NCBI GenBank assembly: GCA_964558645.1
Contig: CAZLEV010000001.1
Coordinates: 349,568-413,567, forward strand
Source of the DNA: an uncultured archaeon
GTDB lineage: Archaea; Asgardarchaeota; Thorarchaeia; Thorarchaeales; Thorarchaeaceae
DNA: 64,000 nucleotides
Direction: 5' to 3'
Shown here: in pieces, positions 44,086-64,000 of the stretch
Layout: each line of letters opens with the position of its first letter
How positions within the stretch are numbered: position 1 is the stretch's first letter
The notes under the pieces: model-generated
What the model was told of the DNA's origin: nothing
What the model saw: the letters and a program-made list of their open reading frames with translations, nothing else
Database searches by the model: none
Made by a program: the position numbers and the translations under genes

Positions 44086-44090
44086 GATCT

Positions 44091-45829: not shown

Positions 45830-46876
45830 GTGAGGCAAATGAAGGGAACTAAGGACTCTCTGAATCCATCATTCGAAATTGCGGTCAGGAATGCTGAAGA
45901 AGTCGTGACCGAGGAAGAAATTCGTACAATAGTCGAAGGCAAATCTGGATTCAACTTCTATTATGGCACTGCACCTACAGGCCCTTTTCATTTTGCATAT
46001 CTCATTCCACTCAACAAACTCGTCCAGTTGTCTGACATAGGCGGCCGAGGGACAATTCTGCTTGCTGACTATCACTCCCATCTGGACTCTCAGAAGACTT
46101 CCTTTGAGCTCATGGAGCTTCGATCCAAATACTATGAGGAATGCATCCGTGGAGTGCTAGGTAAGCATTCAGACAAAATGGATTTCCGTCTTGGTTCCAG
46201 CTATCAGCATAAGCGCGATTATGTCGAGGACCTATACCGCGTAGCGGCCAAGGTCACAACAACACGAGCAAAACGAGCTGCTAGTGAAGTCGTCAGGATG
46301 CGAGGAGAGGCAAAGGTTTCTGAGCTTCTGTACCCTCTTCTACAGATTCTTGATGTCAAGTACCTCCAGGCGGACATTACGGTTGGGGGCATCGATCAAC
46401 GGAACATCTACATGCTGGGTCGTGAAGTCCTCGAGGATGTGGGCTTCAAGAAGGGCAGCTACATCTTCATGCCTTTGCTTCCATCTCTTAGAGGTGGGGG
46501 AGCCAAGATGTCCGCCAGTGATCCGTTGTCCCATATCCGGGTGACGGATGAACCTGCTGCGATTCGTCGAACAATCAAGAAGGCATATTGTCCTGCAGGT
46601 GATCTAAAAGCAAACGCAATCACATCCACAGTCCGCTACATCGTCATGCCCCGCTTTGGGAAGCTTGAGATTGAGAGAAAGGAGAAGTTCGGCGGGGATG
46701 TAAGCTTCGATTCGATTGACGTGTTCGAAAAAGCATATGTCAACGAAGATATTCATCCCATGGACGTGAAGAAGGCTGTTTCCGAGGCACTTATTGACCT
46801 GCTCGAGCCTGCCCGTAAGTACTTCGAGAAGCATCAGGACTTGCTCGAAGAAGTAGAGAAGACATTTGAGACCTAG
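45830..46876 (+). CDS. tyrS: Tyrosine--tRNA ligase (archaeal/eukaryotic type)
   Basis: YYGTAPTG..HFAY (HIGH equivalent), YPLLQ.LD, GGIDQR, KMSAS and HPMDVK motifs. Confidence 0.95.
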   Translation: MRQMKGTKDSLNPSFEIAVRNAEEVVTEEEIRTIVEGKSGFNFYYGTAPTGPFHFAYLIPLNKLVQLSDIGGRGTILLADYHSHLDSQKTSFELMELRSKYYEECIRGVLGKHSDKMDFRLGSSYQHKRDYVEDLYRVAAKVTTTRAKRAASEVVRMRGEAKVSELLYPLLQILDVKYLQADITVGGIDQRNIYMLGREVLEDVGFKKGSYIFMPLLPSLRGGGAKMSASDPLSHIRVTDEPAAIRRTIKKAYCPAGDLKANAITSTVRYIVMPRFGKLEIERKEKFGGDVSFDSIDVFEKAYVNEDIHPMDVKKAVSEALIDLLEPARKYFEKHQDLLEEVEKTFET

Positions 46877-46877
46877 A

Positions 46878-46895
46878 GGGAGTATCGGGACTCCC
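46878..46895. terminator. Short hairpin between convergent tyrS and giant protein A
   Basis: GGGAGT-ATCGGG-ACTCCC in a 28-bp convergent gap. Confidence 0.4.
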
Positions 46896-46904
46896 CCGTT
46901 GGTT

Positions 46905-49900
46905 CTAGTCTATGTCGATGCCAAGACTCTCCAGTAACGCCTTCAGATCAGCCTTTGAGAGGTTCTCGGCCTCTTCAAGTATCGTATCTATCTCATCCGA
47001 TGACATGCCCTTCTTTTCGAGTTTCATCTTCAGGTCCTGAAGTTCCTCCGGTAGGTCTCCGAGGGTCAGTTCTTCTTTGACCTCCAGCTCCTCTACGCCT
47101 GCGAGTTCGTCCGCTCGTCTTGCCTCCTCTTGGATAATGACCTCTTTGATGAATCCCGGTCTCTCACTCGGCTTCATCCTTGCGAGGTCAAGTCTGAAGG
47201 CCTCAATCTCTTCATCGCCTAGGCCAGTAATCTCAGCAAGCCTCTTGAGGAGTTCGTCCACCTCAGGCACAATCGCTCGGATGGTCTCACCTTCTACCTC
47301 CTCCAATGTCTTGGTTACGCCAGAAGGTCGTAGCTCCTCATTTGCAATCTGAAGAATCGTCTTCCTACGAGATGGAACGTCTGCAGGCTTCGGCACTCCT
47401 CCTCGAGCTAGTTTACGAATCATTGCGTTCATTACGCGTACTAGTTTGGGAACGCTCCAGATTCTCACATACAGGAAGAGAAGGGCGGCAAAAAGGATGA
47501 GCCCTATGCTTCCGTAGGTTGTTAGCGCCTGAGTCAGGACTTGTGCCGCAGATGGGTCTGAACGTATCTCGAATTGGATCGATTGAGTTTCATAGAGCTC
47601 CTTTGTGAAGGCGACGCTCATAATAAAGGTACCTGCCTCGTTCACTTGGAGTAGTAGAATGTATGTACCGTTACCTAGAGATTGAAGCCTGTCCGGATAG
47701 TATGTGAGACTGCCAGTCCCAAAGCTCACATCTGGAACTACGTTTTCTATTCCTACTCCGTGGTCTAAGTCCCAATAGGTGATGGTGACCTGGATTGCTG
47801 AGCCCGGTATCGTCTGGACAGTTGTGTTGGATACCATTAATGTGGTACGGATTCTTCGTACATCAAGGTCAATCGTGTGAACGGGGACAGAGTACATGGT
47901 GCCAGTGAAGCTTACTTCTATGGTGTAGAGACCTATGGGGAGGTCACTGGGAACGTTCAATACGAAGCTCCCGTTCCCGAGCTGTGTGAGTTCCGCTTGA
48001 CCAATACCCTCGAAGAAAGCCAGCCCATTCACGTCCGAAATCGTTACCTGTGTCAGGTCATTGACAACTGTCAGAACAGCGCTAGTTCCCTCACCAATGG
48101 GTATCGATAGGCTCTCTGTTCCTTCGACATGAGCAGGCGTTCTAGCCATGGCAAGAATTAGCCTGATCGATGCAGTGTCGTAGTTGTCCAGAGAACCCTG
48201 AATCTGGATTTCATAGTTGCGCGGAACTGTGACATTGATGAACACTGTGACCGTATAAGTTCCATTGGCATCATCAGTGACAAGTCCTGATCCGCCATCC
48301 CAGATAACCACCAGTTCAGCACCGACTACTGGTTGGTTGTTATAGGTGTCATTCAGATACAGTGAGTATGTGACATTGTAGCCATGGTATCCGGATTGAG
48401 TTGACGTGTCTGTTTCGAACTTCGTCGGCAACGGAACAATACTTGCGAGAGACCTCAACTGAGATGTTGAATAACCCTCTCTTGATGCGGTCAATCTCAG
48501 ATAGAGTGTTTGTGAGCCTATTGGAGTTGTGTTGATGTTTGCCCTGTAGCTCCCGTCAGGTTGCTCAATAAGCTCCCCTGACAGAGTACCTAGAGTATAC
48601 GTAAGATTCGCTCCAAGTATCTTCTGGTTGTTGTCTTCGTTCATGTAGTCTACAGATATGACTATTGAGCTACCGTAGTAGACAGTAAGGTGAGTGATGT
48701 CTTCATCTATCTGTAACCTCGTCGGAACTGGCACGATGTTGATATCGACAGAGGTTTCCAAGAATGCGAAGTTTGTTTCTATCGCCCGAACTATCAACTC
48801 GTATTCTCCCAATGGGAACCCTGACATATTTAGACTCACGATGTAGAAGCCTGGTGTTCCGTTATTGGGAACAAGGTAGTCCGTTCCGTTCCACTCGATT
48901 GATACTTCATCTGCAGTGACAGGCTCGTTTCGACCAGTATCATTGAGATAGACCCAGAAAACAAGGTTGGTGTCGGTGACCACATTAAGTATCGATTGTT
49001 CGAGTACTATCTGACCGGTTCCTCTCGATACTGACAGTGTGAATGTTCTCTGTCGTGTCTGATAAAACTCCCGTGATACTGTTATTTGGGGCTGGTAGGT
49101 ACCATAGTCGTTATCACGTGTGTTCAGATACAGCTCGTAGGTGCCGTCCTCGTTGTCCGAGAAGGTGTATTCTGTGTCGTTCCAGACGAGTACCGCATCC
49201 ATGCCTGGTACCAGCGTGCCGTGATAGGGTTCTTCCACTTCAATGATAATATGAACCATACTGCCCCAATCGGCATAATATGTCGTTCTGTCCATCACTA
49301 TCTCAACTGTGAGGGCACCCGGTTGGATGGTAACAGATGCAATACCAGTCGAATAGTTCTCAAGCTGAGCTTGGATCTCGAATGGGTATTTCTGCGCTAT
49401 CAGGCCAGTAGTATTGATTGCGATTTGATAGATGCCTGCAGCAGTTTCTGTTATGGTCACTTCAGTCGCATAGAGCGCTTCCCAGTTGGTCGTTACAAGT
49501 GCGTCACTCAGCACACCTCCATGGTCTGCATCAGTGAATGTTACATTGACTCGGTGAATGTCACCCAATGGTAGCGATCCGAGTGGAGGTGCTTCTGCAC
49601 TAAGCGCAGTCTGTATCAGCCTGATTGTTGCTGGAACATCGGTTGTGGTTCTATTCGAGTAGAATGGTATTCCGGTCTTGCCCATTGTTATGTTGAAGAA
49701 TATGACACCTGCACCTCCAAACTGGGAGGTGGGAATCAGAATCCTGTAGGTTCCTTCACCTATCTCTTCCAAGTAGTAAGTTGCAGAAGTCAGGTTTGTG
49801 AACGAGATTGTTGCAGAGGCATTCTCTATCCCAGCATCAGACAGATAGTCTACAAACTCGAATTCAACAGTGATATTGCTCAATAGAGGAGTTTCGTCAA

Positions 49901-52900
49901 CCAATGGGAACAGTATTTGTGTAGGCCTTTCGGTTGTCGTTGCTTGGGTCGTCTTTTCGCGACTAGCATAGTATGGCTCGACACCGGACTTGTTGACCAG
50001 AAGGCGAATCTCATGAGCAGTAACCAAGTTCTCCGAATCAAGAACCGTAGACTTGAGGCTTATGTGATATACATCTTCTGTCATATCTAGGCTGTATTCG
50101 GCTGAAGTGATTATCGTACTTGTCGGACCATGAAACAGAGTAATGTGTGTCTTATTGATACTAATGACTTGTCCTGTCAGGTAATCGGTGAAACGAAATG
50201 AGAATGTCACGTTTTCTTCGAACGGCGTTTCGCCGGGCGTCTGAGTGATCAATATCTGAGTTGGCCGCTCGACAACTCTTGCGTTTATGAACCTGCCAGA
50301 GGTCGCGTAGTATGGCTCTCCACTCCATGACAGAGTCACATTTAGTGAATAAGTCGCAAGCCCACCGAGAGCTTGAGTTTCAATGCGTATCAGGTAGTCG
50401 CCATTTCCGATATCAGTGAACCAGTAATTGACGCCTGGCTCCAGCGAATCCGTTGAATCATCACAAGAAACAAGCACCGCTGCCCCGCTGATCTGGGTTC
50501 CAGTAGTGTCATCAGAGTACGAGACTGTGAAGCTCACGTTAGTACCATAGGGTGCGGGGTCCGGGCTGTCATAGCCAAGTTGCGTGACTCTATCCAATAT
50601 TGAAAGACTGAGTATCTCTCCGGCATCAGCAGCGAAGTTAGTCCCGTTGTAGACTATGGTGGCGTTGATTATGAAGATGCCAGTTGTGGAGAAGGAGGTG
50701 TTGAGTTTCACCATATAGTGACCGTTTCCTAGTCCTGTAACCGTATACCATCCTTCTAGAGTGGTGTTTAGCATCAAGTTACCTGTCATGCCGGAGCTAC
50801 TGCCTGCAATCAGGTCTGTATAGACAAACTCGATTGATACGTCGTTCCCCCACTGTGGAGGAGTGAACGAGAGATGTGTCAGCTGGGTGCTGCGTAGGGT
50901 CACGGTGATGCCAAATGACTTGCTACTGATCGACGTGTAGTATGGCTCTCCTACCCATGATAGGTTCAGGTGGAGTGTAAAAGTACCCGTACCACCGAGT
51001 GTTGCTGTGTCTATCGCTATTGTGAATGTTCTTGTTCCGGAATCATAATTCAGTGAGTAAATGACGCCGCCTTCATTTAGAGATATGGAGAGAGAACTAG
51101 AATTCTCGATTCTCACACTCGTCAGAGAGTCTATGTAGCCAAACTGGAAGTATGCATCTTCTCCGTATGGCGTGATATCCGCAGATGAGTAATCAACATA
51201 AGTTGGTCTTTCAAGTATGATTAGACTCACTGTCAGAGTCTTGTTCTCATAGAGTGGACTCACGCCCTCGCTCCATTCGAAATCTATTTGGAACTTGAAA
51301 GTACCCACAAGCCCAAAGCGCGATGAATCGAGAGAGAACCTGTAGGTTCCGGGGTTGCCCACGAGCTCTGTTACTTCGAAATCATTTTGCGCCACAGAAT
51401 GTCCGGAGGTTATTGTTGTGATTCTGAGCCAGACGTCTCCTGTGGATGCATTTGAGATGCGAGTTCCATTCACAGCGTCATAGTAGACGACTGTAAACGT
51501 GAAGTTATTCAAGTAGTAGGTTGCTGTTGGCGCTTGTTCAAGATAGAGGTCGGTCGCCGTCCCAAGGACTCTGACTTCCGTCAATATGGTCTGATTGTAG
51601 TACTTCTCCACTGCTCCTATCCACTTTGCTTCTATGGTCAAATCTTTCCATCCGATGCTTCCCCATTGGTCGCTTGCGATCGTGATGTTATAGTGTCCCT
51701 CACCCAAGCTGGATTCAGAGACTGAATATAGGAGATCGAGTACTCCTGAGGAGCTGACCGATATCTGAACGTTTCCGGAGTTGTTGTTGATTCCCGTTCC
51801 CAGATCTGTGTCACGATACTCGACAAGTACGATTATGCTCTGCCCGTAGGGTGTCTGCTCCACAGGGCTATCAAGAACAAATAGCGTGTTATGACTTCGG
51901 ACCTGTACACCAATAGAGAAGGTGTGATTTTGATAATTCTGTCGTCTGACATTGAACTCGACGTTGTAGAACTCATCTGTCCCTGTTATTTCGTCGTCAT
52001 CCTCAGTGAAGATTGTTATCTCATATACTCCATCATCTATCTCGACTACAGTGTAGTTCTGTTCACCGCTCTCGTGGAACGGAGTCCAATTGCAGGTTAT
52101 GTAAGATGCGCCACCTGTTATCGGAACGTCGAGCTCGCTGTCAAACCATGTCAGTGTGAAGGAGTCCGATTCTCCTACAGGAATCGACAATCGGTTGGCG
52201 GAATACGAGACGCGATTGTAGATCTCACGTACCTCCACATATATGACCATTTCAGCAATCTCAACGAAAGGGGCATTTGCTTGAACTAGCACAGGATATT
52301 CATCCAGAGGCACTGTTGAGCTATCAAGGTCGATTCTATATACTCCCAATCCCTGTTCGGTCACAGTGTAAGACTGGCTCCAGTTAGACGTGACAAGTGC
52401 TCCCACTATCCCGGTTCCGTTCACGTTCTTGAAGGAAACGTTGAAGCTTTGGTCGCTCCCTATTGCTCCGGATATTCCCGGGTATTGTGGTGATTCAAGT
52501 GTTGAAGCATAATTCACATTGAGCGTGATGGTGGCCTGGGCAGCATCGTAACTACTCTTCGACCAAGTGAGATCCACATCATATTGTCCCTTTCCGGGAA
52601 GCATGGATGTGTCCAGTACTTTGGTGTACTCGCCGTTGCCGCTGTCATCAAATGAATCTGCACCGTCATACCATGAATACTGTAGATTGCCCCCAGGAAC
52701 TAAGATGTCACTATCGGTGTCATTGGCCTCTACGATAAGAAGAACAAGGTCTCCGAAGGTTACGTTGGTGGTCCATGTGCCCACTGCATCATCTGGGTAG
52801 CTGATTACTAGCTCAGAGGAGTGAGTCACTGTGAAGGGCCTTCTGAAGAATCCAGTGTTTTGCCATTCGCCGTTTGCGGCCAAGTCATTAGTAGATGCCT

Positions 52901-54644
52901 GAACCATCCAACTTCCTGCCGAAGAGTTGCTGCCTGCGAGGTTGAAGAAGGGCGTGGTTGCATAACCTGTTCCATCTGCAGTGGCATTGACAGAGTACAT
53001 CTTGACTCCAGCAGGGTCGTAGATTGTGATATTGACAATGGCGTCTTGGAATGTGCTCCCAACATAAGCACGGACACGGGTGCTATTTCCTGCCCTCAAG
53101 TCAGTCGTCCGTTTCCAAGAGGTATCATTGGGATCATATAACTCCAAATCTTGAATCATGTTGGGCGCTGACGAGCGAATTCTCCAGTAACCGTAGCGAC
53201 CTGCCTCTGTAGCTACATCATAAGCTGATACATTGAGATAGCCGTTTCCGGGCTGACCGCCATTCCATCCAGAAGTGAGGTTTGTCGACGGCGCTAGGGG
53301 TTTCGCTACGAAGAACACATCTCTATTCAGAGGAATCGTCTGATTGAAGTAGTATCTGTTGACGTAGCCCGTTGGAATTGCGGCATAGAAATAGGTCGTG
53401 TAGTTCACTTCAGTTGCATTCTGCACCACATATCTCTGCCCGTAAGAATTGGGACTTATCTCATATACCGTGGGTATATCAAGGCGTCTTGCAAACATGT
53501 TGCTCTCGACATCGAACTCAACGATTATCTTGCGATTCGGGTCTGGGTTGGTTGGTGTTGGACTCCATGTGAAGTTGAGCACCACAGGATCATCGGTCCA
53601 AGGTGAATCAGCCATCTCGGTTACATAACCGGAACCGTATCCCGGGGCAGAGCTGACACTGATACCGTTCATTGCAAGACTCACGTCAGAAGGTGCTGCT
53701 CTTGTCTTGACATAGAGTTCGAAGTTGTCAACTTTGGCTCTTGGTCCAATCTCGGGGTCATAACCCACAGATGCCTTACTCCAGAGTCCTATCTCGACGT
53801 TAACATCCTGGTCTGCAGGTAGACTGAATATGTCAGGGGAAACATCGGTGAGTCCCGAGTCATACCATGTTTCTTCAGCATCTATGTCGGTGAAGACCTT
53901 CTGCCAGACCTGTGAACCTTCAATGTTCAGATAGACGGCAAATGAGCCGGTCATTCCATAGTGGGTATCATCTTGGGTATCAGCCCAGTAGTCTGTTCTG
54001 AATGCGGCCCATACAACTTGCCCTCTAGGTATGGACATGGTCTGGGTCACATAGGCACGGTCGCCTTGATCATAGTAGAACGGTGCACTCGCTGAGTTGG
54101 AATCTATCTCGAAGTCGAAGGTACCATCTCCCGCCCCACGACCCGATGAGTTGTATGATGATATTGGTGTGCTGTATGAACCGACGTCCGTCAAGCCTGC
54201 CGTCCAGTCTGAGATGGTCGGTTCGCTGTTGAAATCCCAGTTCCTTACCCAAGACCTGTTCTCTGTCAACTGGGATATCTGTGCTTCAACACGGTATCCT
54301 TCCCACCCGCTTCCGGTAGGAACACTGACGTTTGTTCCTGTTGTAGTGTTCGATGCAAGATACGTCATCAGCTTGTTCCGGAAGTGGTCTGTTGCATTCC
54401 CGAACTCACTACTGATCAGCGGATCTGTAGTACCTACCCATTCCAGACTACCTTGTTCGCTAACGACGAATTTGTGAAGCAACTCCCCAGGCTCCACGTC
54501 AACAGTCTGTCCATTGCCAACATCCACAGGAATGCCCTTGGTGAGATCAGGTTCAATAGCTGATAGGCTATTCAGATTTGAGAGTATTGGGACAAGGAAC
54601 AGGAATACAACTGCGAATGTTGGGATTAGTCTGCGTCTATTCAT
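46905..54644 (-). CDS. Giant type-I membrane protein A (2579 aa): head, ~17 Ig-like modules, TM, ~187-aa cytoplasmic tail
   Basis: Signal peptide, repeated ~100-120-aa beta modules (T.L...PYG.N.T..Y.D...I.GA...G.G.Y), TM near 47469-47516, charged helical tail. Confidence 0.9.
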   Translation of the reverse strand: MNRRRLIPTFAVVFLFLVPILSNLNSLSAIEPDLTKGIPVDVGNGQTVDVEPGELLHKFVVSEQGSLEWVGTTDPLISSEFGNATDHFRNKLMTYLASNTTTGTNVSVPTGSGWEGYRVEAQISQLTENRSWVRNWDFNSEPTISDWTAGLTDVGSYSTPISSYNSSGRGAGDGTFDFEIDSNSASAPFYYDQGDRAYVTQTMSIPRGQVVWAAFRTDYWADTQDDTHYGMTGSFAVYLNIEGSQVWQKVFTDIDAEETWYDSGLTDVSPDIFSLPADQDVNVEIGLWSKASVGYDPEIGPRAKVDNFELYVKTRAAPSDVSLAMNGISVSSAPGYGSGYVTEMADSPWTDDPVVLNFTWSPTPTNPDPNRKIIVEFDVESNMFARRLDIPTVYEISPNSYGQRYVVQNATEVNYTTYFYAAIPTGYVNRYYFNQTIPLNRDVFFVAKPLAPSTNLTSGWNGGQPGNGYLNVSAYDVATEAGRYGYWRIRSSAPNMIQDLELYDPNDTSWKRTTDLRAGNSTRVRAYVGSTFQDAIVNITIYDPAGVKMYSVNATADGTGYATTPFFNLAGSNSSAGSWMVQASTNDLAANGEWQNTGFFRRPFTVTHSSELVISYPDDAVGTWTTNVTFGDLVLLIVEANDTDSDILVPGGNLQYSWYDGADSFDDSGNGEYTKVLDTSMLPGKGQYDVDLTWSKSSYDAAQATITLNVNYASTLESPQYPGISGAIGSDQSFNVSFKNVNGTGIVGALVTSNWSQSYTVTEQGLGVYRIDLDSSTVPLDEYPVLVQANAPFVEIAEMVIYVEVREIYNRVSYSANRLSIPVGESDSFTLTWFDSELDVPITGGASYITCNWTPFHESGEQNYTVVEIDDGVYEITIFTEDDDEITGTDEFYNVEFNVRRQNYQNHTFSIGVQVRSHNTLFVLDSPVEQTPYGQSIIVLVEYRDTDLGTGINNNSGNVQISVSSSGVLDLLYSVSESSLGEGHYNITIASDQWGSIGWKDLTIEAKWIGAVEKYYNQTILTEVRVLGTATDLYLEQAPTATYYLNNFTFTVVYYDAVNGTRISNASTGDVWLRITTITSGHSVAQNDFEVTELVGNPGTYRFSLDSSRFGLVGTFKFQIDFEWSEGVSPLYENKTLTVSLIILERPTYVDYSSADITPYGEDAYFQFGYIDSLTSVRIENSSSLSISLNEGGVIYSLNYDSGTRTFTIAIDTATLGGTGTFTLHLNLSWVGEPYYTSISSKSFGITVTLRSTQLTHLSFTPPQWGNDVSIEFVYTDLIAGSSSGMTGNLMLNTTLEGWYTVTGLGNGHYMVKLNTSFSTTGIFIINATIVYNGTNFAADAGEILSLSILDRVTQLGYDSPDPAPYGTNVSFTVSYSDDTTGTQISGAAVLVSCDDSTDSLEPGVNYWFTDIGNGDYLIRIETQALGGLATYSLNVTLSWSGEPYYATSGRFINARVVERPTQILITQTPGETPFEENVTFSFRFTDYLTGQVISINKTHITLFHGPTSTIITSAEYSLDMTEDVYHISLKSTVLDSENLVTAHEIRLLVNKSGVEPYYASREKTTQATTTERPTQILFPLVDETPLLSNITVEFEFVDYLSDAGIENASATISFTNLTSATYYLEEIGEGTYRILIPTSQFGGAGVIFFNITMGKTGIPFYSNRTTTDVPATIRLIQTALSAEAPPLGSLPLGDIHRVNVTFTDADHGGVLSDALVTTNWEALYATEVTITETAAGIYQIAINTTGLIAQKYPFEIQAQLENYSTGIASVTIQPGALTVEIVMDRTTYYADWGSMVHIIIEVEEPYHGTLVPGMDAVLVWNDTEYTFSDNEDGTYELYLNTRDNDYGTYQPQITVSREFYQTRQRTFTLSVSRGTGQIVLEQSILNVVTDTNLVFWVYLNDTGRNEPVTADEVSIEWNGTDYLVPNNGTPGFYIVSLNMSGFPLGEYELIVRAIETNFAFLETSVDINIVPVPTRLQIDEDITHLTVYYGSSIVISVDYMNEDNNQKILGANLTYTLGTLSGELIEQPDGSYRANINTTPIGSQTLYLRLTASREGYSTSQLRSLASIVPLPTKFETDTSTQSGYHGYNVTYSLYLNDTYNNQPVVGAELVVIWDGGSGLVTDDANGTYTVTVFINVTVPRNYEIQIQGSLDNYDTASIRLILAMARTPAHVEGTESLSIPIGEGTSAVLTVVNDLTQVTISDVNGLAFFEGIGQAELTQLGNGSFVLNVPSDLPIGLYTIEVSFTGTMYSVPVHTIDLDVRRIRTTLMVSNTTVQTIPGSAIQVTITYWDLDHGVGIENVVPDVSFGTGSLTYYPDRLQSLGNGTYILLLQVNEAGTFIMSVAFTKELYETQSIQFEIRSDPSAAQVLTQALTTYGSIGLILFAALLFLYVRIWSVPKLVRVMNAMIRKLARGGVPKPADVPSRRKTILQIANEELRPSGVTKTLEEVEGETIRAIVPEVDELLKRLAEITGLGDEEIEAFRLDLARMKPSERPGFIKEVIIQEEARRADELAGVEELEVKEELTLGDLPEELQDLKMKLEKKGMSSDEIDTILEEAENLSKADLKALLESLGIDID

Positions 54645-57600
54645 TCTGCATCCCCTCCTAGTTGGTCAAGAAGAGCATCTATCTCCGCTTTGGAGAGGTT
54701 CCTAGCTTGTTCTATCATCAGTTCGGCTTCTGCTCCGTCAATGCCCATCTCAACGAGTCTCTCCCGTAGATGATCCAGTTCTTCCTCGGTGAGTTTCCTC
54801 TCTAGGTCTAGTGTTTCCTTCTCTGGTTCGGCAAGTTTCTCTGCCTCCACAATGTCCTTGGCACGTCGTGCACGTTCTTGTTTTAGGACTTCGCTGATGA
54901 AGCCTGCACGTTCACTGGGCCTCATCTTCTCAAGATCTCCTCTTAGCGTGTCTACATCTTCAGGTGCCAATCCGACAACAACAGCGAGCTCTTTCAAGAG
55001 TTCTTCAATATCAAGAATGGATATGTCAACGGTTGAGGGCGCAACATCGGCCGACCCTTTCACAACTCTCACCGGCCGCAAATCCTCGTTCATCATATCA
55101 ATGATCACCTGTTTTCTGTTACGGACAGGAGCTGGCTCAGGTATCTTCCCTCTAGATAGCTGTCGGACCATCGCTCTGATTCTCCTCAGCATCTTGGGAA
55201 CTGACCAAACCCGAATGTAGGCTGCTGCAAAGGCGACAAGGCCAAGAATGGCAAGCGCCAGATAGCCGAAGCTTGTATAGAGGGCCTGTTGCTCAGGACT
55301 GAGTGTGACGTATACGATACCAGAATACGTGCTGGACTCGTAGTTGGTCTTGTTCAGTTGAATCCTGTACTCGTAACCCTGCACGTTAGTTCCTACGAAA
55401 GCGAACACATACGTGCCATTCCCGAAGTCGATAGATGATTCTGGCAATACCTGAAGTGATGTTCCAGATGTTGAGTTGACAGCCATGGGAATCCCTGTTT
55501 CATGGTCGACATCCCAGTATGTTACTCTCACGAATACTGTCTGACCTGAGAATACTGTGCCCGGCGGAGGTGTGACTTGTAGTTCAGTCCTGATCTGTCT
55601 GATAGTCATCTCCACAATGATCTCTCCCCTACTGTAGTTCCCCCGAGTGAATGTAACTCGTATTATGTATGGATTCTCGCGAACGTCGAGTGACTGAATA
55701 CCTGACTCAACGGCCCCGAATCGGTATGACCCATTTCCTAGGTTTGTGAGTGGGTCGGCACCGAATTCCCAGATCGCAGTTGCCGTAGCATCTGTGACTA
55801 GAACGTGGTTCAAGGTATCATTGAATTGGAACAACTGTGTGTAGTCATCACTTACAGGGATGTCAACCTCTAGTGTTCCTATCACTTCTGTTGGAATGGG
55901 CAAGACTCGCAGTTTCACCGAGCTATAACCAAACTCATAGCGGGTCTTCTGGAATGAAACAGATATGTCGTATGGAATGATACCCGCTTGAACTAATGAG
56001 GTATCCAGGGTGAAGGAATAGGTGCCGTTTTCTCCCTCAAGAAGTATTCCGGTGTAGTCGCCAATGGTAAATGATGTTGTTGCATCTTCAACACTCATTG
56101 AATTTGTCTCATCCCAGAATGAAAACGAGAATGTCGCCAATTGTCCGTAGTAGACGTCTTGAGAAGCATCAGTGAGGATCTCAACTGTCGTCCGAATCCT
56201 TGTGACTGTTAGTGTGAATTGGAGTGACGCAGAAGCATACCCGTCTTTGGTGCTTGACACTCTCAAGATGTACTCTTGGATGGCTAATTCGGTCGTGTTC
56301 ACCAGAGCGTAATACCACCCATCCTCAATCTCGGAGAGATTACCGGAGATGCCTGATATGCTGTAGATCAGGTTGGCACCTGTTACCCCCGTGCCAAGAT
56401 CTGTATTGTTTAGGTGGACAGTGATATTCGCAAGAGCTCCTGCAACGGCGCTTAGCACTGTCCGTCCGTCAACGGGTGTGATTTCTGTATTTATCTCTCG
56501 AACCTCAATCGTAAGCTGGATGCTGATACTCTTGTAGTTTGTAGAGGTTGCTTGGACTTGAATCTGATAGTTGCGTATACTAACTCCTTCGATTGTGAAA
56601 TGGCCGACATATCTTGAGAGGGTGGAGTTCCAAATCAAGATGCCAGAGCCTCCCGTCCAAGCAAATGAAAGCGAGCCGTCTGGGATGACAGTGTCATTGG
56701 CTTGGATTAGGTATTGCGCTTCAATAGTGACATTCTGCCCATTCACGACCACCAATTTGTCGAGAGCCCCGGTAAGACGGGCGGGAACCTTGGATATTCG
56801 TACTTGGAATTCCCTCTGTCTAGATTCGTAATTGGCGAGAGCGAAGCTTATCGAGAGCGTGTATTCTCCTGCGTTATAGGCCAGCGTCGACAGATTCAGT
56901 GAGTAGGCACCGTTTTCGATCTCGATCATCGCAAACGTGTCTGACAGGACCGTTAGGTTGACGTTTCCGCCAACAACACCAGTGCCATTTCTTGCATTCG
57001 TGACGTTTACATTGATTGTGACAATTGTTCCCCATTCTGGACTCTCGGGATGAGCATCCAAATCGATGTCAACAGGAAGGGCTGCCAGAACTATGTCCGC
57101 CGTTATCGTCCTGTTGTAGTGGAGATATGATGAAGCATATACTTCGAAGGGGTACTCTCCAGCATCTAGAGGCCGTGTGTCAATGGTGAGGTAGTATACT
57201 CCACCGACGCCTTCTAGTATTGTGGCTGTAGAGCCGTAGAGTGACTGCCAGTTTGTCGTGACATTTGCTCCTTCGATACCAAGACCTGTGTTTATGCTTG
57301 TGAAAGTAACATTCGCCTCAAGGGTGTCGCCAAGATAGTATGTAACACCTGTTGGAACAACAAGAGCGAGCTCTGTTGACACGGGATTCAATGTGATACT
57401 GAATGACAGTTGGGTCTTATTCTGATAGAAGGGGGTTCCCAACCAGGTGAAGTTCGCAGAAAAGCGATACTTGCCGAGGGTTGGAAACTCGGTTGTGTTT
57501 ATCCTAACTTCATAGGATCCGTCAGCACCGACGAGAACCCAGTACTCGATTACTGACACATTCGAACAAGATACTGTGACTTCGGCTCCGGATATCCCGT

Positions 57601-60600
57601 TTCCTGTCAGATAGTCCGTGTATTTCAAAACGGCGGTTGCATTGTAGAATATGTCTGCAGGGGGAGTTGAGAGAACACTGGCTTGAGTGAGCCTCTGGGT
57701 GATAGTTGCTTCTGTGGAGGTACTAGAGTTGGCATAGAATGGTATTGAATCGCCCCAGAAGAACTTGACAGAGACTGGATGTTTGCTTACCAGTTCGGAT
57801 ACGAGCAACGTGGACTGGATCGAGATCGAGTATACCCCATTGGTGCCAGAGAGTGAGTACTGGCTGCTGGTGAGCGTTTCGCCTGCTCCATGGCCGAGAA
57901 GGAGTTCCAGTTTGCTCAGGGATATCCCCGAACCATCGAGATCATCTGTGACTGTTATTTCGAATGTGACGTTCGAAAGATATGGGGTGTTGAGTGGCGA
58001 TTTTGATATGGTAATCGTTGCGGGTCGGCGAGATACCTCTACTTCAGCTGTTCTGGTTCTATTCTGGTAGTACGGGCTCCCGGTATAGCTTGCTTCAATC
58101 GCTATAGAATAAGTGCCGAATCCGCCAAGTGCCTCAGTAGAGATTCTGACTCTGTACTGACCATCTCCAAGATAATCAACGAAGTAGTTCACACCCAGTT
58201 CTAGGGGTTCATAAGATGAACTGCATGATGCAAGGATGGTCGCATCTGGTATACCTTCGTCGGTGTTATCATCAGAGTACGTTACTGTGATGTTTGCCTG
58301 TGTGAGATAGGGTGCCAGATCTGGAAGGTCACTCGTTAGTTGTGCCCTTCTTCTTGTGACCGTGAGATAGAAGTAGTCGCCTGCGTCCTGACAGTATCTG
58401 CTTCCGCCGTAAATGATGGTCACATTTATTGTGAAAGTGCCCAATGTTTCCAATGCACTTGTGTTAAGGACGACTGTGTAGGTTCCGTCCAGATTGTCAT
58501 AAGATGTGTAATTTCCCTCGAGTGAGGCATCAAGCGTGAGAGTGCCTCCCTGCATGCCCGTACTGGTGAAGTCATCCAAGTCTGTGTAAGTGAATAACAG
58601 GGTAAGATTGTTTGCAAACTGTATCGGCCCATATGCTCCGTGAGTGAGCTCAGTGAATCTTTCTCTCACTGTGATAGGAATCTCTACAGATGTTCTGTTT
58701 TGGTAGAAAGGCTCGCCAGTCCATGTGAAATTCAAGTGGAATGAGTGACTTCCGGGTATCCAAGAAGAGGTATCAATCTCTATGAAGAATGTTCCAGTTC
58801 CATCTCCTTCGTAGTAAATGGTGTATCCTATTACCTCTTGAATCGAAAGGTAGAGGGTCGATGCATTTAGAATTGCCTCTCCTAATAGAACATCCCTGTA
58901 GACTACGGTCAGGTTCACGAGCTCATCATATGGCACTGTAGGAAGTGGTGTCCAGTCAACATTAGTCTGCCGCTGTGTCGTATAGACCGTGATTATGAGG
59001 GTCTGATTCTCGTACAGCGGGAGTTGACCTTTTGTCCAGTTGAACTGAATCCGCAAGTCGCAGGAAATGAGCCCACTGAGATAGGATGTGTCGAACTCGA
59101 TCTGGTACTCTCCTGGATTATTGACAGGATCGAGTTCCGTTATGACCATGAGGCCTTGAGATAGGGCCTGGCCAGCTGTCAACACATCGATGTATAGGTG
59201 AACATTGAATGGATATGAGCCAGTTGCGTTCACTATCCCCGTGTCATTTGCGACATCGTAATATATCACGCTGAATGTGAGATTCTCTCCGTATGGTGTC
59301 ATGACTGGATTTTGTCCAATGAAGATGTCAGTCGGGGTACTCGTGATTCTCACACTTGTTGTAACGGTCTCATTGGAGAACTTGACTGTAGGTCCAGTCC
59401 AGTTAGCGTAGATGATCAGGTCTTTTGTTCCAGTGGAACCCCACTGGCTTGCAGGTAGTGATATAATGTATTCTCCTGATTGGGTTCCATTCGCCACATC
59501 ATAGATGATTGATGGGAACCCTGGGCTCTCAACGTATATCAAGGCATTAGAGCCAACAATCCCGGTATCCGCATCTACGTCATAGTAGACAACAGATATG
59601 ACAACATCTGCTGTGTACGGTGTCGGGTCGATTGGGTTTGTAAGATAGAATGATGTGAGATGGGTTCTAAGCTGCACCTTCACATTGAACGTATGATTTT
59701 GGGCGCCGTATTTCTTAACATTGAACTCCACTGTGTACGTGTCAAGAATGTCATCATCCAGCGAGTACAGATCGACACGATAGACTCCGGGTGTGGCCGT
59801 TTCTGTGACATTGTAATCATCGAAGGTATAGCCATGGAGTGCTGACCAGTTGCAAGTTATGGCATCAGCTGAGTCCGTGATTGGCTGGTCATGATCCGTG
59901 TCAGTATAGGTTATGGTGAATGAGGTTGTGTATCCCACTGGAAGTGACAGCTGGCTTGTTGAGGGAATGGCCGATGTAAACAACTCGCGTACTTCTAGAG
60001 AGAGGACAATCGTGCGTGATTCGTAGTAGTCCTTTGCGGCAGTGATGGCAACATCATACTCGCCGATGCTGACTCCGTCAGTGCCCAGTGTCAGAGTGTA
60101 ATAGCCCGGATTTCCTGTCTGTGGTGCTACGGAGTAGCTGTCATGTGTCCAATCCGTAGTGATCTGTGCGTCAGTTATGGGGTCCCCTTTTTGGTCCTTG
60201 AACTGCACTGTCATCTCGGCGTCGTAACTCATGGGAACGTCTACTCCTGGAGCATCAGGAGAGAGAAGGTCCGTAGTGTAGATGGCGTTGATGATGAAGT
60301 TTCTCGACAATGGGTCATAGAAGTCCTTGTTCCACTCGAGAGAGACGTTGAACGCACCGTTTGATGCAAGCTCTCCCGTGTCCAGTGTTATGCTATACTC
60401 TCCCGTTCCCAGATCATTCATCGTTCCCGACCCGGCAGCCCAAGAGTAGGTCATAACACCCCCGGCAAGCAGATCTGTGTTATCAGCATCTTGGACTCTT
60501 AGCTGCAGAAGAATCAGGTCACCATGAGTCACATTTTTCGTCCACGTTGCTGCAGACCCAACTGGATACTTAACGCTCATGTCAGTGGAGTGTGTTACGC

Positions 60601-63319
60601 TGAACTTCCTTCTGAAGAAGCCGACATTATGGACTGCAGATCCTGAATTCTGATCTGTAACAAATGCTTGGACTTCCCAGTTTCCCACTGATGCGTTGTA
60701 AGGGTTAAGGTTAACGAACTCGGTGACTGCATATCCAGAGCTGTTCACGGTAGCCTGAAGGGATGTCCAGAGCGTGCCATTAGGCAGATATACCGAGAAA
60801 TAGACAATATCTGAGGCGTAGTCTGGCGCGAGAGATACCATGAACCGAGTATCATCATCTGCTCTGAAGTTATTTGTGATGAGCCAAGATGTCGTATATT
60901 CATCCCAAACCTTCAAGCTATCGATTATGTTGGGCGAAGATCCCTTTAGGTACCAGAAGCCGTTTTGGGCACTGGTCGTTATGTCATAGACTGAAACGTT
61001 TAGAGAACCGTCGCCTGGTTCTCCCAAACTCCAACCGGATGTGAGATTATCCAAGCGATAACTTGGCTCTCCCACATGATCTATATCTCGGTTTTCCGGT
61101 ATTGAAACATTGAAGAAGAAGCGATTCTCATAGCCGCCCGGGACAGCAGCGTAGTGGTTCGTGTCCCACCTTATGTCGGTACTATTTTGGGCGAGATAGT
61201 TATCACCATTTGTGAAGGTTTCCGTCTCAGATACAGTCTGTATATCGTATCTTCTTGCAAAGGCAGTCACGAGAACGTCGATCTCAACTGTTATCTCCTC
61301 ATCCGGGTCTGGAGGATTGGGAGTTGGGGTCCATGAGAAGTTGGCGTATACACTGCCCTCAGTCCATGGGGTTGACGGTCGATATGAAACAGTTCCAAGT
61401 CCCAGGATGGGAGTTGACCCCTCAAGTACATTTGAAACATCTTCCCCATTCATCTGTAAATTGATTGATTCAGGAGCCGCCTTGGCTTTTATATAGACGG
61501 CAATATTGTCAAAACGCCCCTCAGGCTTGATGTCGTCTGTTCGATACCATTCAGAATCAGTCACTCGCAGTCCAACCATAATCGAAACATTGGGGAGTGT
61601 GAAATAAGCGGGATCGGTCGGAATCAAACCGGTTGAGTACCAAGTGTTATCATCAGCAATCCCATCAAACGCCATATTCCAGAGATAGTCTCCTCCTTCG
61701 TCTGGGTCACCGACAGTCACGAACAGCTCAAAGAATCCTGTTGGATTGTAGTTCTCCCACCATCTCCCACGGATATCGGCATAGTAGTCAAGTGAAACTC
61801 CGGCCCAAGTGATTTCTCCTCGGTCTATCGTAATGTCTTGTTGGATAAACGCCTTGTCACCAGGATTATACCAGAAACCATAGAGTCCTCCCTCATTTCT
61901 GTGATAATATCCATCTATCATCGCTGTCGCAGCAGCGTCGCCGTCTCCTCCATTTGGCATCCGTCTTGCTATCTTGCGGGTGGTCCCGCTTCTCTCACTT
62001 GTGAATACATAATCAGATCCGTTAAGGGCTATCCCGTAGTTGAATCTGAATTGACCATTACCGCTTCCATCAGAACCCCACTGACCTAGATATGAACCCG
62101 TTGAGGAGAAGTACTGCACTCTGTCGTTCCCAACGTCTGCGACGTAGATGGTGCCGCCTGAGCTTACTGCGACCCCCACTGGAGTCCTGAAGTATCCATT
62201 TCCTCCACTACCATAAAACGAATTCTGGCTACCGACTAGACTCTGGTAGCTACCCGTTGAGCTGAACCTCTGTACTCTGCAGTTGCTAGTATCTGAAACA
62301 ATGATCTCGTCGTTGTTTTGGTTGATTGCGATGCCCGTTGGGCGACGGAGCTGCCCTGTACTTGTTCCGGTTCCTCCAAATTGCCCCTGATAGACCCCGT
62401 GCATATTGAAATACTGTACTCTATCATTGCCCATGTCGGCGACATAGACGTATCCGTTCGAGTTGCGGATTGCAACTCCCATCGGACCGTGGAATTCGGA
62501 TGCTACTTCCCCTGTGCTTCCCCACTGGCTGACGTATTGGCCTTGAGAATCAAAGAGTTGGATTCTGTCATTCCCAGAATCTGCAACATACACATGTCCG
62601 GTCGAGTTGATTGCGATGCCAGTCGGATAACTGAACTCACCATCCCCCGTGCCTGCACTTCCCCATTGAAACTGAAAGGTACCCGTGGCATCGAAGACCT
62701 GTATTCGATTATTGTAACTGTCAGCAACGTAGACATGACCAGAGCTGTTAATGGCAATCCCCCAGGGATCGGTGAAATTACCGCTTTCGCTGCCCCTTGC
62801 TCCCCACTGGCCCTGGTAACCGCCACCAGAAGTGAAGTATTGGACTCTGTTGTTTCCGTTGAAGGCCCCCTCGAGTTGGGAGCTTCCATACACCCAGGCG
62901 CCAGATTCCTCGAAGTCGTTGTTTACTAACCATGTGCGATTCTCAGTGATGCTTGTCAAATTCCCGAAGACCTCATAGCCCTCCCAGTTGTCGCCTAGTG
63001 GAACCGACAGGTTTGCAGTTGTGGTAGTTCCTGAGGGATGATAGACCATCTGTTCACTTGAGAACGAATCGGTGCGTTTACCATATTCTGATGCGATGAG
63101 TGGATCTCCAATACCTGTTACTTGATCTGGAGCAGAAGCTATTTCATACTTCATGAGTACTTCGTCTGGGCCCACGTGTATTTGGGTTCCATCATCAAGC
63201 GTTACCGTTTCACCTTCAGCCTGGTTCCATCCAAGTCCCAAGTCGGGGAACAGACTAGTGGAACTAAACAACAGGGAAACAATAGCCACGAATACTAGTA
63301 TTGTCTTTCGCTTCTGCAT
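54641..63319 (-). CDS. Giant type-I membrane protein B (2892 aa): NHL propeller in the head, ~17 Ig-like modules, TM, ~191-aa cytoplasmic tail
   Basis: Signal peptide, NHL repeats at residues ~156-442, modules collinear with protein A, TM near 55218-55272, ATGA overlap with protein A. Confidence 0.9.
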   Translation of the reverse strand: MQKRKTILVFVAIVSLLFSSTSLFPDLGLGWNQAEGETVTLDDGTQIHVGPDEVLMKYEIASAPDQVTGIGDPLIASEYGKRTDSFSSEQMVYHPSGTTTTANLSVPLGDNWEGYEVFGNLTSITENRTWLVNNDFEESGAWVYGSSQLEGAFNGNNRVQYFTSGGGYQGQWGARGSESGNFTDPWGIAINSSGHVYVADSYNNRIQVFDATGTFQFQWGSAGTGDGEFSYPTGIAINSTGHVYVADSGNDRIQLFDSQGQYVSQWGSTGEVASEFHGPMGVAIRNSNGYVYVADMGNDRVQYFNMHGVYQGQFGGTGTSTGQLRRPTGIAINQNNDEIIVSDTSNCRVQRFSSTGSYQSLVGSQNSFYGSGGNGYFRTPVGVAVSSGGTIYVADVGNDRVQYFSSTGSYLGQWGSDGSGNGQFRFNYGIALNGSDYVFTSERSGTTRKIARRMPNGGDGDAAATAMIDGYYHRNEGGLYGFWYNPGDKAFIQQDITIDRGEITWAGVSLDYYADIRGRWWENYNPTGFFELFVTVGDPDEGGDYLWNMAFDGIADDNTWYSTGLIPTDPAYFTLPNVSIMVGLRVTDSEWYRTDDIKPEGRFDNIAVYIKAKAAPESINLQMNGEDVSNVLEGSTPILGLGTVSYRPSTPWTEGSVYANFSWTPTPNPPDPDEEITVEIDVLVTAFARRYDIQTVSETETFTNGDNYLAQNSTDIRWDTNHYAAVPGGYENRFFFNVSIPENRDIDHVGEPSYRLDNLTSGWSLGEPGDGSLNVSVYDITTSAQNGFWYLKGSSPNIIDSLKVWDEYTTSWLITNNFRADDDTRFMVSLAPDYASDIVYFSVYLPNGTLWTSLQATVNSSGYAVTEFVNLNPYNASVGNWEVQAFVTDQNSGSAVHNVGFFRRKFSVTHSTDMSVKYPVGSAATWTKNVTHGDLILLQLRVQDADNTDLLAGGVMTYSWAAGSGTMNDLGTGEYSITLDTGELASNGAFNVSLEWNKDFYDPLSRNFIINAIYTTDLLSPDAPGVDVPMSYDAEMTVQFKDQKGDPITDAQITTDWTHDSYSVAPQTGNPGYYTLTLGTDGVSIGEYDVAITAAKDYYESRTIVLSLEVRELFTSAIPSTSQLSLPVGYTTSFTITYTDTDHDQPITDSADAITCNWSALHGYTFDDYNVTETATPGVYRVDLYSLDDDILDTYTVEFNVKKYGAQNHTFNVKVQLRTHLTSFYLTNPIDPTPYTADVVISVVYYDVDADTGIVGSNALIYVESPGFPSIIYDVANGTQSGEYIISLPASQWGSTGTKDLIIYANWTGPTVKFSNETVTTSVRITSTPTDIFIGQNPVMTPYGENLTFSVIYYDVANDTGIVNATGSYPFNVHLYIDVLTAGQALSQGLMVITELDPVNNPGEYQIEFDTSYLSGLISCDLRIQFNWTKGQLPLYENQTLIITVYTTQRQTNVDWTPLPTVPYDELVNLTVVYRDVLLGEAILNASTLYLSIQEVIGYTIYYEGDGTGTFFIEIDTSSWIPGSHSFHLNFTWTGEPFYQNRTSVEIPITVRERFTELTHGAYGPIQFANNLTLLFTYTDLDDFTSTGMQGGTLTLDASLEGNYTSYDNLDGTYTVVLNTSALETLGTFTINVTIIYGGSRYCQDAGDYFYLTVTRRRAQLTSDLPDLAPYLTQANITVTYSDDNTDEGIPDATILASCSSSYEPLELGVNYFVDYLGDGQYRVRISTEALGGFGTYSIAIEASYTGSPYYQNRTRTAEVEVSRRPATITISKSPLNTPYLSNVTFEITVTDDLDGSGISLSKLELLLGHGAGETLTSSQYSLSGTNGVYSISIQSTLLVSELVSKHPVSVKFFWGDSIPFYANSSTSTEATITQRLTQASVLSTPPADIFYNATAVLKYTDYLTGNGISGAEVTVSCSNVSVIEYWVLVGADGSYEVRINTTEFPTLGKYRFSANFTWLGTPFYQNKTQLSFSITLNPVSTELALVVPTGVTYYLGDTLEANVTFTSINTGLGIEGANVTTNWQSLYGSTATILEGVGGVYYLTIDTRPLDAGEYPFEVYASSYLHYNRTITADIVLAALPVDIDLDAHPESPEWGTIVTINVNVTNARNGTGVVGGNVNLTVLSDTFAMIEIENGAYSLNLSTLAYNAGEYTLSISFALANYESRQREFQVRISKVPARLTGALDKLVVVNGQNVTIEAQYLIQANDTVIPDGSLSFAWTGGSGILIWNSTLSRYVGHFTIEGVSIRNYQIQVQATSTNYKSISIQLTIEVREINTEITPVDGRTVLSAVAGALANITVHLNNTDLGTGVTGANLIYSISGISGNLSEIEDGWYYALVNTTELAIQEYILRVSSTKDGYASASLQFTLTVTRIRTTVEILTDASQDVYYGQLATFSFSFWDETNSMSVEDATTSFTIGDYTGILLEGENGTYSFTLDTSLVQAGIIPYDISVSFQKTRYEFGYSSVKLRVLPIPTEVIGTLEVDIPVSDDYTQLFQFNDTLNHVLVTDATATAIWEFGADPLTNLGNGSYRFGAVESGIQSLDVRENPYIIRVTFTRGNYSRGEIIVEMTIRQIRTELQVTPPPGTVFSGQTVFVRVTYWDVDHETGIPMAVNSTSGTSLQVLPESSIDFGNGTYVFAFVGTNVQGYEYRIQLNKTNYESSTYSGIVYVTLSPEQQALYTSFGYLALAILGLVAFAAAYIRVWSVPKMLRRIRAMVRQLSRGKIPEPAPVRNRKQVIIDMMNEDLRPVRVVKGSADVAPSTVDISILDIEELLKELAVVVGLAPEDVDTLRGDLEKMRPSERAGFISEVLKQERARRAKDIVEAEKLAEPEKETLDLERKLTEEELDHLRERLVEMGIDGAEAELMIEQARNLSKAEIDALLDQLGGDAE
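61994..62854 (-). repeat. NHL repeats (5 full plus 2 half) within protein B
   Basis: Repeats of F..P.GIA....G.VYVAD.GN.R.Q.F...G.Y..QWG..G...G of about 47-53 aa. Confidence 0.92.
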
Positions 63320-63417
63320 AGCATTTTCACCGGCAAGTTTCGCTTGACGAAGCTCGGATAACCACTGGATAGCTGGGTTTGTCCTCTCTTCTCAATGATG
63401 CAGTGTAATCCGTACAG

Positions 63418-63430
63418 TCTTTTTAATAAT
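63418..63430 (-). promoter_or_regulatory. Candidate TATA element for the giant-protein operon
   Basis: Minus strand ATTATTAAAAAGA about 100 nt upstream of the protein B ATG. Confidence 0.3.
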
Positions 63431-63491
63431 GTCATCATCTTGTCGTTCCCTAAAAAGAACGTTCTGTCATTTTTTCGAAACGTGATACAGT

Positions 63492-63998
63492 CTATGTTCT
63501 TGCCTCACGCCTCTTGAACCAGACCAGTATGAGAACCACCAACACGAAGGTGTACGGAACGATGAACATCATACTGTAGAGAGCATGTGCTCCATTCGAG
63601 GTGCCAGATGTGGGTTCGACAAGTGTCACCCATTCAGTCGTCGCAGAGTTGAGTCCTCTATCATAGGCCTGTACCATAAGAAGGACTCCATGTTCTGGCT
63701 CGAACGCACGGATGCTGAACTGGGTCGTCCACAGACTTCCGTTGTAGGTGCAGAGGAACTCGAGGGTTGTTTCATTAAGACTCACCACGGCCGTGACATT
63801 CTTCACCCCCGCAATGTCGTCCGATACTTCTGCCCACACGGAGAGGTTTCCACCGGCGAAGTCGTGAGGCTCATATCCCCAGTTCCATATTGTCGGCGGA
63901 AGGGTATCTGCTACCGAGAAAACCATGTCATGCTTTCTCTGCTTAGCCTGTTGAAGCGCATCGTAGCAGCCATGCCAGTCCATGGATTCGTATCTCTC
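63492..63998 (-). CDS. C-terminal part of a membrane-anchored surface protein (5'-truncated by the window edge)
   Basis: Frame is open to the window end; Ig-like segment (DTLPP...VSDD.AGV..V...AYD) and a TM followed by KRREART. Confidence 0.7.
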   Translation of the reverse strand, partial: ERYESMDWHGCYDALQQAKQRKHDMVFSVADTLPPTIWNWGYEPHDFAGGNLSVWAEVSDDIAGVKNVTAVVSLNETTLEFLCTYNGSLWTTQFSIRAFEPEHGVLLMVQAYDRGLNSATTEWVTLVEPTSGTSNGAHALYSMMFIVPYTFVLVVLILVWFKRREART

Positions 63999-64000
63999 AC

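Follow-up and report, generated by a model that had tools for sequence, protein, structure and literature searches.

Giant paralogous surface proteins encoded by a conserved, translationally coupled gene pair in Thorarchaeia: a candidate core structure of the cell surface

The analysis concerns a window of 64,000 nucleotides (nt) from the genome of an uncultured archaeon of the Thorarchaeaceae (GenBank assembly GCA_964558645.1, contig CAZLEV010000001.1, positions 349,568 to 413,567), and within this window two giant, adjacent genes on the minus strand, which are called B (upstream) and A (downstream). The pair spans 16.4 kb, i.e., about 0.45% of the 3.63-Mb genome, and its features are compiled in Table 1. 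A hydropathy scan revealed a hydrophobic N-terminal signal segment, i.e., a signal peptide of the Sec type, and a single transmembrane helix in both A and B. The initial annotation, which had been made from the sequence alone, had described an ATGA overlap of the two genes with a GGAGG element just upstream, and both were located at the B-A junction. The Shine-Dalgarno element coincides with the codons for the C-terminus of B, in which ..LGG.. is conserved.

It had also been claimed that the two proteins align module by module. A BLASTP comparison of B with A verified this: the identity was 36% over 2441 alignment columns (E = 0), and the alignment was collinear from the head to the C-terminus. 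All four motif pairs that had been quoted were found in the translations (DPLIASEYG/DPLISSEFG, TENRTW/TENRSW, and YWDVDH/YWDLDH among them).

Table 1. Features of the B-A gene pair and its flanks (positions in the window; aa, amino acids; ORF, open reading frame; CBM, carbohydrate-binding module; Ig, immunoglobulin; HMM, hidden Markov model; AF2, AlphaFold2)
Feature	Position	Strand	Description or basis
Gene B	54641..63319	minus	ORF, 2892 aa; signal peptide, CBM-like head with NHL insert, 17 Ig-like modules, transmembrane helix, helical tail
Gene A	46905..54644	minus	ORF, 2579 aa; architecture as B, minus NHL
ATGA overlap, B stop / A start	54641..54644	minus	Sequence
GGAGGGG, Shine-Dalgarno-like	54652..54658	minus	7 nt before the A ATG, within the last B codons (..LGG..)
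B: NHL six-bladed beta-propeller insert, about aa 160-455	61955..62842	minus	Pfam
B: stalk, 17 Ig-like (Big-type) modules, aa 925-2665	55325..60547	minus	Iterated HMM
B: transmembrane helix, aa 2679-2707	55199..55285	minus	Hydropathy scan
B: cytoplasmic tail, 185 aa, all-helical	54644..55198	minus	Alignment
A: head, predicted jelly roll of CBM type, aa 83-388	53481..54398	minus	AF2, Foldseek
A: stalk, 17 Ig-like modules, aa 622-2360	47565..52781	minus	Iterated HMM
A: transmembrane helix, aa 2373-2399	47448..47528	minus	Hydropathy scan
A: cytoplasmic tail, 180 aa, juxtamembrane basic helix and two helical units	46908..47447	minus	AF2
Gene M, 3' part	63492..64000, continuing past the window to G000:C1:415236	minus	725-aa membrane-anchored protein
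M-B spacer	63320..63491	minus	T-run (about 63452-63459), A/T-rich box ATTATTAAAAAG (63419-63430)
8-bp GC-rich hairpin GGGGGAGT/ACTCCCTC	46876..46897	.	Putative, read from the sequence

A scan of 87 Thorarchaeia genomes yielded a match in 81 of them, including 24/24 high-quality genomes and all 17 genera. In 43 genomes a B-type protein (33-39% identity to A) is encoded immediately upstream of an A-type protein (41-91% identity) and on the same strand, and thus the two do not usually occur singly. Where B and A are found on separate contigs, the contig break interrupts one of the two genes or coincides with its end, and no contiguous assembly has A without B upstream. The A orthologues form more than 70 clusters with identities of 44-55% and lengths of 2553-2629 aa, and the B orthologues are found at 49-51% identity. 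The named homologues stem from metagenome-assembled genomes (MAGs) of Candidatus Thorarchaeota (SMTZ1-45, AB_25, OWC2/3/5, and BC among them) and from two closed chromosomes, and the pair recurs in MAGs from many independent studies.

The B-A junctions were read at 20 orthologous loci. A 4-nt overlap was present in 17 of them (11 ATGA, 6 GTGA), TAATG was found in two, and in the single genome of a second family the two genes are separated by a gap of 4 nt. The GGAGG element was detected ahead of the A start in 19 of the 20 junctions. This conservation of the junction supports the translational coupling that had been proposed on the basis of the window. One genome (G061:C22:15-30111) contains four consecutive genes in the order B'-A'-B-A, indicating a joint duplication of B and A.

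A phylogeny with 21 sequences of each type separated A from B into distinct clades with a support of 1.0. The pair from the outgroup family sits basal on each side, and the two subtrees look congruent. The identity between A and B was 33.6% within genomes versus 32.8% across genomes; because it was no higher within than across genomes, there is no indication of gene conversion. The separate, class-wide clades and the lack of gene conversion indicate that the duplication is older than the radiation of the class, in contrast to the recent, lineage-specific duplication that the initial annotation had named as an alternative. The ratio of nonsynonymous to synonymous substitution rates (dN/dS) was determined for the genome of the window versus a congener in segments of 300 codons. 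It was 0.083 for B and 0.112 for A, all segments had values of 0.05-0.14, zero indels were present, and no region of relaxed or diversifying selection was found along A or B. Conservation per column varied little from end to end (0.35-0.66), with its peak in the tail. Strong purifying selection acts on both genes throughout.

The stalk modules, which have a length of about 100 aa each, were counted with a profile HMM, which was seeded with a single module and refined in iterated searches of A, B, and the orthologues of both. The 17 Ig-like modules per protein that had been counted in the initial annotation were recovered in A as well as in B, and the same number was found in all 42 orthologues analyzed (21 A and 21 B). 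Unmatched module numbers, which had been expected if the two chains do not belong together, were not seen. Module 1 is separated from the juxtamembrane S-V/I-P motif by 1779 +/- 6 aa in the A sequences and by 1787 +/- 13 aa in the B sequences, the standard deviation of the per-module pitch was about 1 aa across the class, and the pitch profiles of A and B were correlated with r = 0.97. A co-variation of the module counts within pairs, which had been proposed as a further check, was uninformative: the counts are matched but invariant, and the test therefore cannot discriminate. The stalk lengths showed a within-pair co-variation of r = 0.28, and the difference between A and B was 13.4 aa for chains from the same genome versus 14.1 aa for chains from different genomes, with almost no variance to be compared. 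Each module retains its own identity, contrary to the drifting, homogenising repeats of adhesins, and such an individual conservation is expected if each module makes specific contacts, either with the partner chain or within an array.

When the profile of all 34 modules was compared with known structures, the intimin-like FdeC was matched (4e9l, E = 2.9e-7), and weaker matches to invasin chains were also obtained. Single modules matched the Pfam families Big_3_5 (1.1e-6), Big_1, Big_6, Invasin_D3, and CarboxypepD_reg. The matches to FdeC and to the Big and Invasin families indicate that the stalk is built of bacterial-type Ig-like beta-sandwiches. Ig-like domains usually have a length of about 4 nm, and on this basis we estimate that a stalk of 17 domains would measure roughly 65-75 nm if fully extended.

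For the head of A, AF2 predicted residues 83-388 with values above 90 in the predicted local distance difference test (pLDDT). Foldseek retrieved CBM61, CBM4, CBM11, and CBM27 at a probability of 1.0 (target TM-scores 0.5-0.58), and the model also resembles MAM domains and the ligand-binding domains of ephrin receptors. The head of A shares 10-16% sequence identity with the CBMs, and a fold search in the ESM Atlas was not informative (query-normalised TM-scores of at most 0.36). The structural model points to heads with a jelly roll of the carbohydrate-binding-module type. In the Pfam search A gave a weak MG2 match alone, whereas B gave NHL (E = 9.9e-39, four scored stretches), the DUF5128 6-bladed propeller, SGL, and TEN_NHL (E = 2.7e-7). 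In the alignment of the two proteins the propeller corresponds to residues of about 138-472 of B, which are inserted opposite residues of about 154-183 of A. The initial annotation had attributed most of the length difference of 313 aa to this propeller. This is correct for the genome of the window, where the insert explains nearly all of the difference, but it is a lineage-specific feature that is absent from most B orthologues. Among the complete B frames of the Thorarchaeia scan, 11 have lengths of 2882-2916 aa versus 24 with 2568-2649 aa, and Pfam detected NHL in 5/5 long, but in 0/5 short orthologues. About a third of the B orthologues carry the propeller, and the long and short forms interleave in the tree. 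Because it is missing from most B proteins, the lengths of A and B differ there by only 1-2%.

The extracellular parts are rich in potential glycosylation sites. B contains 68 N-x-S/T sequons versus 29.5 expected from its composition, A contains 65 versus 26.4, and all but one per protein are extracellular. Signal peptide, C-terminal membrane anchor, and sequon enrichment are hallmarks of archaeal S-layer glycoproteins, and the sequons suggest that A and B are heavily N-glycosylated type-I membrane proteins.

The cytoplasmic tails had been described as long and unlike those of other anchored surface proteins encoded in the window, and this was confirmed: in contrast to the 185 and 180 residues of B and A, respectively, the protein encoded by the neighbouring gene M stops 8 residues past its transmembrane helix. 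AF2 predicted nine helices for the membrane helix and the tail of A (mean pLDDT 85), i.e., the membrane helix itself, a juxtamembrane helix that is basic, and a pair of helical units with an acidic linker between them. A Pfam search with the tail gave only sub-threshold noise and no family up to an E-value of 10, and a comparison of its fold with the PDB gave no match at E <= 0.001. The alignment of the tail with itself for an internal duplication reached an hhalign probability of only 40% across 20 columns. Among 1.84 billion proteins 167 representatives were found that are related to the tail, which is always situated at the C-terminus of large proteins or of their fragments. A survey of 301 Asgard genomes detected the tail in 69/71 Thorarchaeia genomes and, weakly (E about 1e-13 to 1e-17), in 13/14 genomes of one other Asgard family, while it was found in 0/215 other Asgard genomes searched. 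The tail thus cannot be placed in a known fold or family, and it occurs almost exclusively in Thorarchaeia. The genome of the window encodes a third tail-bearing paralogue (G000:C1:24000-40000), which has a length of about 4.9 thousand aa and about 30 Ig-like modules. A second giant pair in this genome was considered and rejected, because the two frames are one gene for about 4.9 thousand aa that is split by a run of N.

The likeness to integrin alpha/beta that had been put forward, in logic and not by homology, is limited to this logic. The proposed logic is the same, i.e., two single-pass type-I chains of similar height with a propeller on one head, Ig-like legs, and cytoplasmic tails through which the chains could be connected to the cell interior. 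However, the FG-GAP, beta-I/VWA, PSI, and EGF domains of integrins were not found in A and B by Pfam, and the subunits of the metazoan integrins, which form a non-covalent heterodimer, are unrelated, whereas A and B are paralogues with 36% identity. The tails of integrins are short and contain GFFKR (alpha) or NPxY (beta), in contrast to the helical tails of 180-185 aa of A and B, in which the NPx[YF] motif was found in 0/42 cases. The propeller of integrin alpha is a seven-bladed FG-GAP propeller, while that of B is an NHL-type insert that most B proteins do not have.

Giant bacterial Ig-like adhesins and the intimin/invasin proteins share the Big-type modules and the N-terminal head on a long repeat stalk. 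They are anchored by a beta-barrel, a sortase signal, or retention in a type 1 secretion system, but A and B by a C-terminal membrane helix with a tail. The number of Big repeats varies between bacterial strains and species, whereas A and B have an invariant number of 17 individually conserved repeats and form a fixed pair of paralogues. By sequence similarity the stalk is assigned to the Big/invasin-type Ig-like fold class, but A and B are set apart from the bacterial adhesins by their anchoring, their pairing, and the constancy of the repeat number. Teneurins and other surface receptors with NHL propellers are similar in that a single-pass protein displays a six-bladed propeller of this type outside the cell, but teneurins are type-II proteins with YD shells, and the propeller of B is an optional insert in a loop of the CBM-like domain. 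A rod with a fixed number of CarboxypepD_reg-type Ig-like domains, which may serve as a spacer, is also present in NOMO, a subunit of the BOS complex with one transmembrane helix, which was weakly matched (9c7v_B, E = 0.026). NOMO is a eukaryotic protein of the lumen of the endoplasmic reticulum with 12 domains, a single gene, and a short tail, and its relation to A and B is no closer than the fold class. In agreement with the initial annotation, which knew of no such Asgard system, a full-text search of the published literature revealed no description of the A/B family. The B-A pair is a genuine surface system of Thorarchaeota that is strongly conserved and has apparently not been described before.

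B and A probably act together at the cell surface. The reading that we favour, with a probability of about 50%, is that the anciently duplicated, co-inherited, and translationally coupled genes encode one core surface structure of Thorarchaeia, in which the two partners would be physically associated. Coupled translation would deliver the two chains in a ratio of about 1:1 to the same membrane site, where they would associate side by side and form either a heterodimer or the building block of a larger, repetitive array. The assembly would form a projection of fixed length, the heads of which would bind an extracellular glycan or protein ligand, while the tails would engage a cytoplasmic partner. 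The protein M may process or shed the pair. The A/B heterodimer had already been proposed in the initial annotation, and comparative genomics has strengthened this hypothesis: the adjacency is conserved, translation appears to be coupled, and the modules are matched (17/17). The heterodimer is plausible, although lone tail-bearing relatives exist. A complex prediction for the last Ig module, the membrane helix, and the tail of A versus those of B scored 0.02 versus a mark of 0.32; the alignments contained only 20 sequences each, and the result counts neither way.

Cryo-electron tomography of a cultured Asgard archaeon, a lokiarchaeon, has revealed unordered, complex protruding surface proteins and no S-layer (PMC9834061; review PMC12993045). 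The protruding proteins are thought to mediate cell-cell contacts that are relevant to eukaryogenesis (PMC9834061). Because the B-A pair is intact, coupled, and fixed in length throughout the class, it is a leading candidate for a protruding surface structure. To our knowledge, none of these protruding proteins has been assigned to a Thorarchaeota gene. The pair offers several handles for its study, i.e., the tail as a bait for cytoplasmic partners, the fixed 17-domain stalk for the inspection of tomograms, and the linked candidate protease M. If the two chains indeed pair, they would be a rare prokaryotic example of a paralogous heterodimeric single-pass receptor.

Several observations weigh against a joint structure of B and A. 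In the closed genome G010, M, B, and A are all missing, and only a lone protein of 1294 aa (G010:C1:2239261-2243142) is encoded, which has 10 modules and a tail of strong similarity (E = 2.3e-77). Single tail-bearing proteins of 3-6.5 thousand aa also occur, and such lone relatives show that the family is not intrinsically dependent on a paralogous partner. In a further genome (G024:C3:351500-371499) the B orthologue is collinear, but three frameshifts split it into four frames; the A gene of this genome is intact. Either the assembly is in error here or B has recently become a pseudogene, and in the latter case A might be able to function by itself. A and B have different fixed residues at 29 sites, which are scattered and do not form an obvious interface cluster. 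In addition, paralogues that are encoded in the same operon can work independently.

The foremost alternative, to which we assign a smaller but appreciable chance, takes up this last point. B and A would be independent, co-transcribed and co-regulated paralogous adhesins or receptors, which act solo or as homo-oligomers and differ in ligand specificity, e.g., by the NHL propeller of B. The heads have indeed diverged (cross-identity between A and B of 0.17-0.40), the propeller was gained by B alone, and the single tail-bearing relatives are also in line with this alternative. In the other Asgard family that contains the tail (G096, G131, G142, G157), distant versions of the membrane helix and the first tail unit end proteins of 745-4511 aa; these are of unequal sizes and are often encoded in tandem arrays of two to four genes, which resemble expanding adhesin families. 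However, independent adhesins usually differ from genome to genome in their occurrence, copy number, and number of repeats, whereas order, overlap, the number of 17 modules, and the length of each module are fixed for B and A throughout the class. The duplication of the pair as a unit, the lack of contiguous assemblies with A but without an upstream B, and the absence of relaxed or diversifying selection from all regions also argue against independent adhesins.

A second alternative, which partly overlaps with the joint structure that we favour, is that the pair forms the main structural coat, i.e., an S-layer-like two-component glycoprotein lattice or canopy at a fixed height above the membrane, which would act neither as a receptor nor in signalling and for which the tail would be an anchor only. 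The near-universal presence in the class, the more than two-fold enrichment of N-glycosylation sequons, and the conservation of all modules, which would fit lattice contacts throughout, are consistent with a coat, and the module profile weakly matched the S-layer chains 4uj7 and 4uid (E = 0.06-0.1). The two-gene system slaA/slaB of the Sulfolobales is a precedent. SlaA/SlaB and the archaeal S-layer glycoproteins share with B and A adjacent co-directional genes, a potential for N-glycosylation, an anchored stalk, and class-wide conservation. But SlaA and SlaB are not paralogues, SlaB alone is anchored, and Pfam revealed no sequence family that they have in common with A and B. The conserved folded tail of 180 aa is likewise foreign to this class of proteins, as we know of no S-layer protein with a long folded cytoplasmic tail. 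One closed genome is devoid of the pair, and cultured Lokiarchaeia exhibit unordered protrusions and no ordered S-layer (PMC9834061). A coat of this type is thus regarded as unlikely.

A more specific version of the joint structure is also improbable, and somewhat more so than a coat. It would be an obligate heterodimeric receptor, the tails of which couple binding by the CBM/NHL heads, mechanically or by signalling, to the Asgard cytoskeleton, to ESCRT, or to another cellular machine. If true, it would be an independently evolved archaeal counterpart of the integrin- or cadherin-type adhesion receptors, in the lineage that is nearest to the eukaryotes.

The third alternative involves gene M, which encodes a protein with a signal peptide, a C-terminal transmembrane helix, and a tail of 8 residues, and which ends 172 nt upstream of B. 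The motif HExxHxxGxxH was invariant in 13/13 M orthologues and is followed, 16 residues on, by an invariant SPMGY. Together, they presumably resemble the zinc site and the Met-turn of metzincins. M had no match in Pfam and no sequence match in the PDB, and an Atlas feature search with M retrieved only its own Thorarchaeota cluster. Based on its motifs M is a candidate metzincin-like protease, which is a lead rather than an assignment. In about 32 genomes it is the immediate upstream neighbour of B, and it is gone together with B-A in the closed genome G010. M, B, and A could form a tethered capture-and-degradation system, in which the CBM-like and NHL heads hold detrital polymers and M cleaves them for uptake. 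The adjacency and the invariant motifs of M, the CBM-type fold predicted for the head, and the peptide-based heterotrophy that has been inferred for Thorarchaeota (review PMC12993045) are in line with such a system. However, M is missing or non-adjacent in many genomes with B-A and was present in only 60/87 genomes, its catalytic fold is only putative, and neither a fixed stalk of about 1750 aa nor a conserved tail is necessary for the capture of substrates. A capture-and-degradation system is therefore judged to be doubtful and to have a low probability. Lastly, the likeness of the two genes could be without functional meaning, if they had been duplicated in tandem only recently and locally or if the assembly were faulty. 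This view is in accord with the tandem arrangement and nothing further, and it was refuted by the adjacency scan, by the separate class-wide clades, and by a dN/dS of about 0.1 in both genes; the A-B identity of 36% and the recurrence of the pair in MAGs from many independent studies also speak against it.

The spacer between M and B contains a T-run and an A/T-rich box (Table 1), and B-A may therefore have a promoter of their own. The spacer is a possible terminator of M and promoter of B-A. At the other end of the pair, the putative hairpin occupies the 28-nt gap between the convergent stop codons of A and the tyrosyl-tRNA synthetase (TyrRS) gene. Beyond the TyrRS gene, at a distance of about 1.1 kb from the 3' end of A, four genes are tightly packed on the plus strand (42037-45802). 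They encode a DUF362 protein, a UbiA-type prenyltransferase, a PHP-associated protein, and an LPG_synthase_TM-type membrane protein, and could represent a lipid-linked sugar pathway; a link to the glycosylation of A and B would be pure speculation. Upstream of M, about 2.5-4.5 kb past the end of the window, the minus strand encodes a GAF-PAS-PAS histidine kinase of 675 aa.

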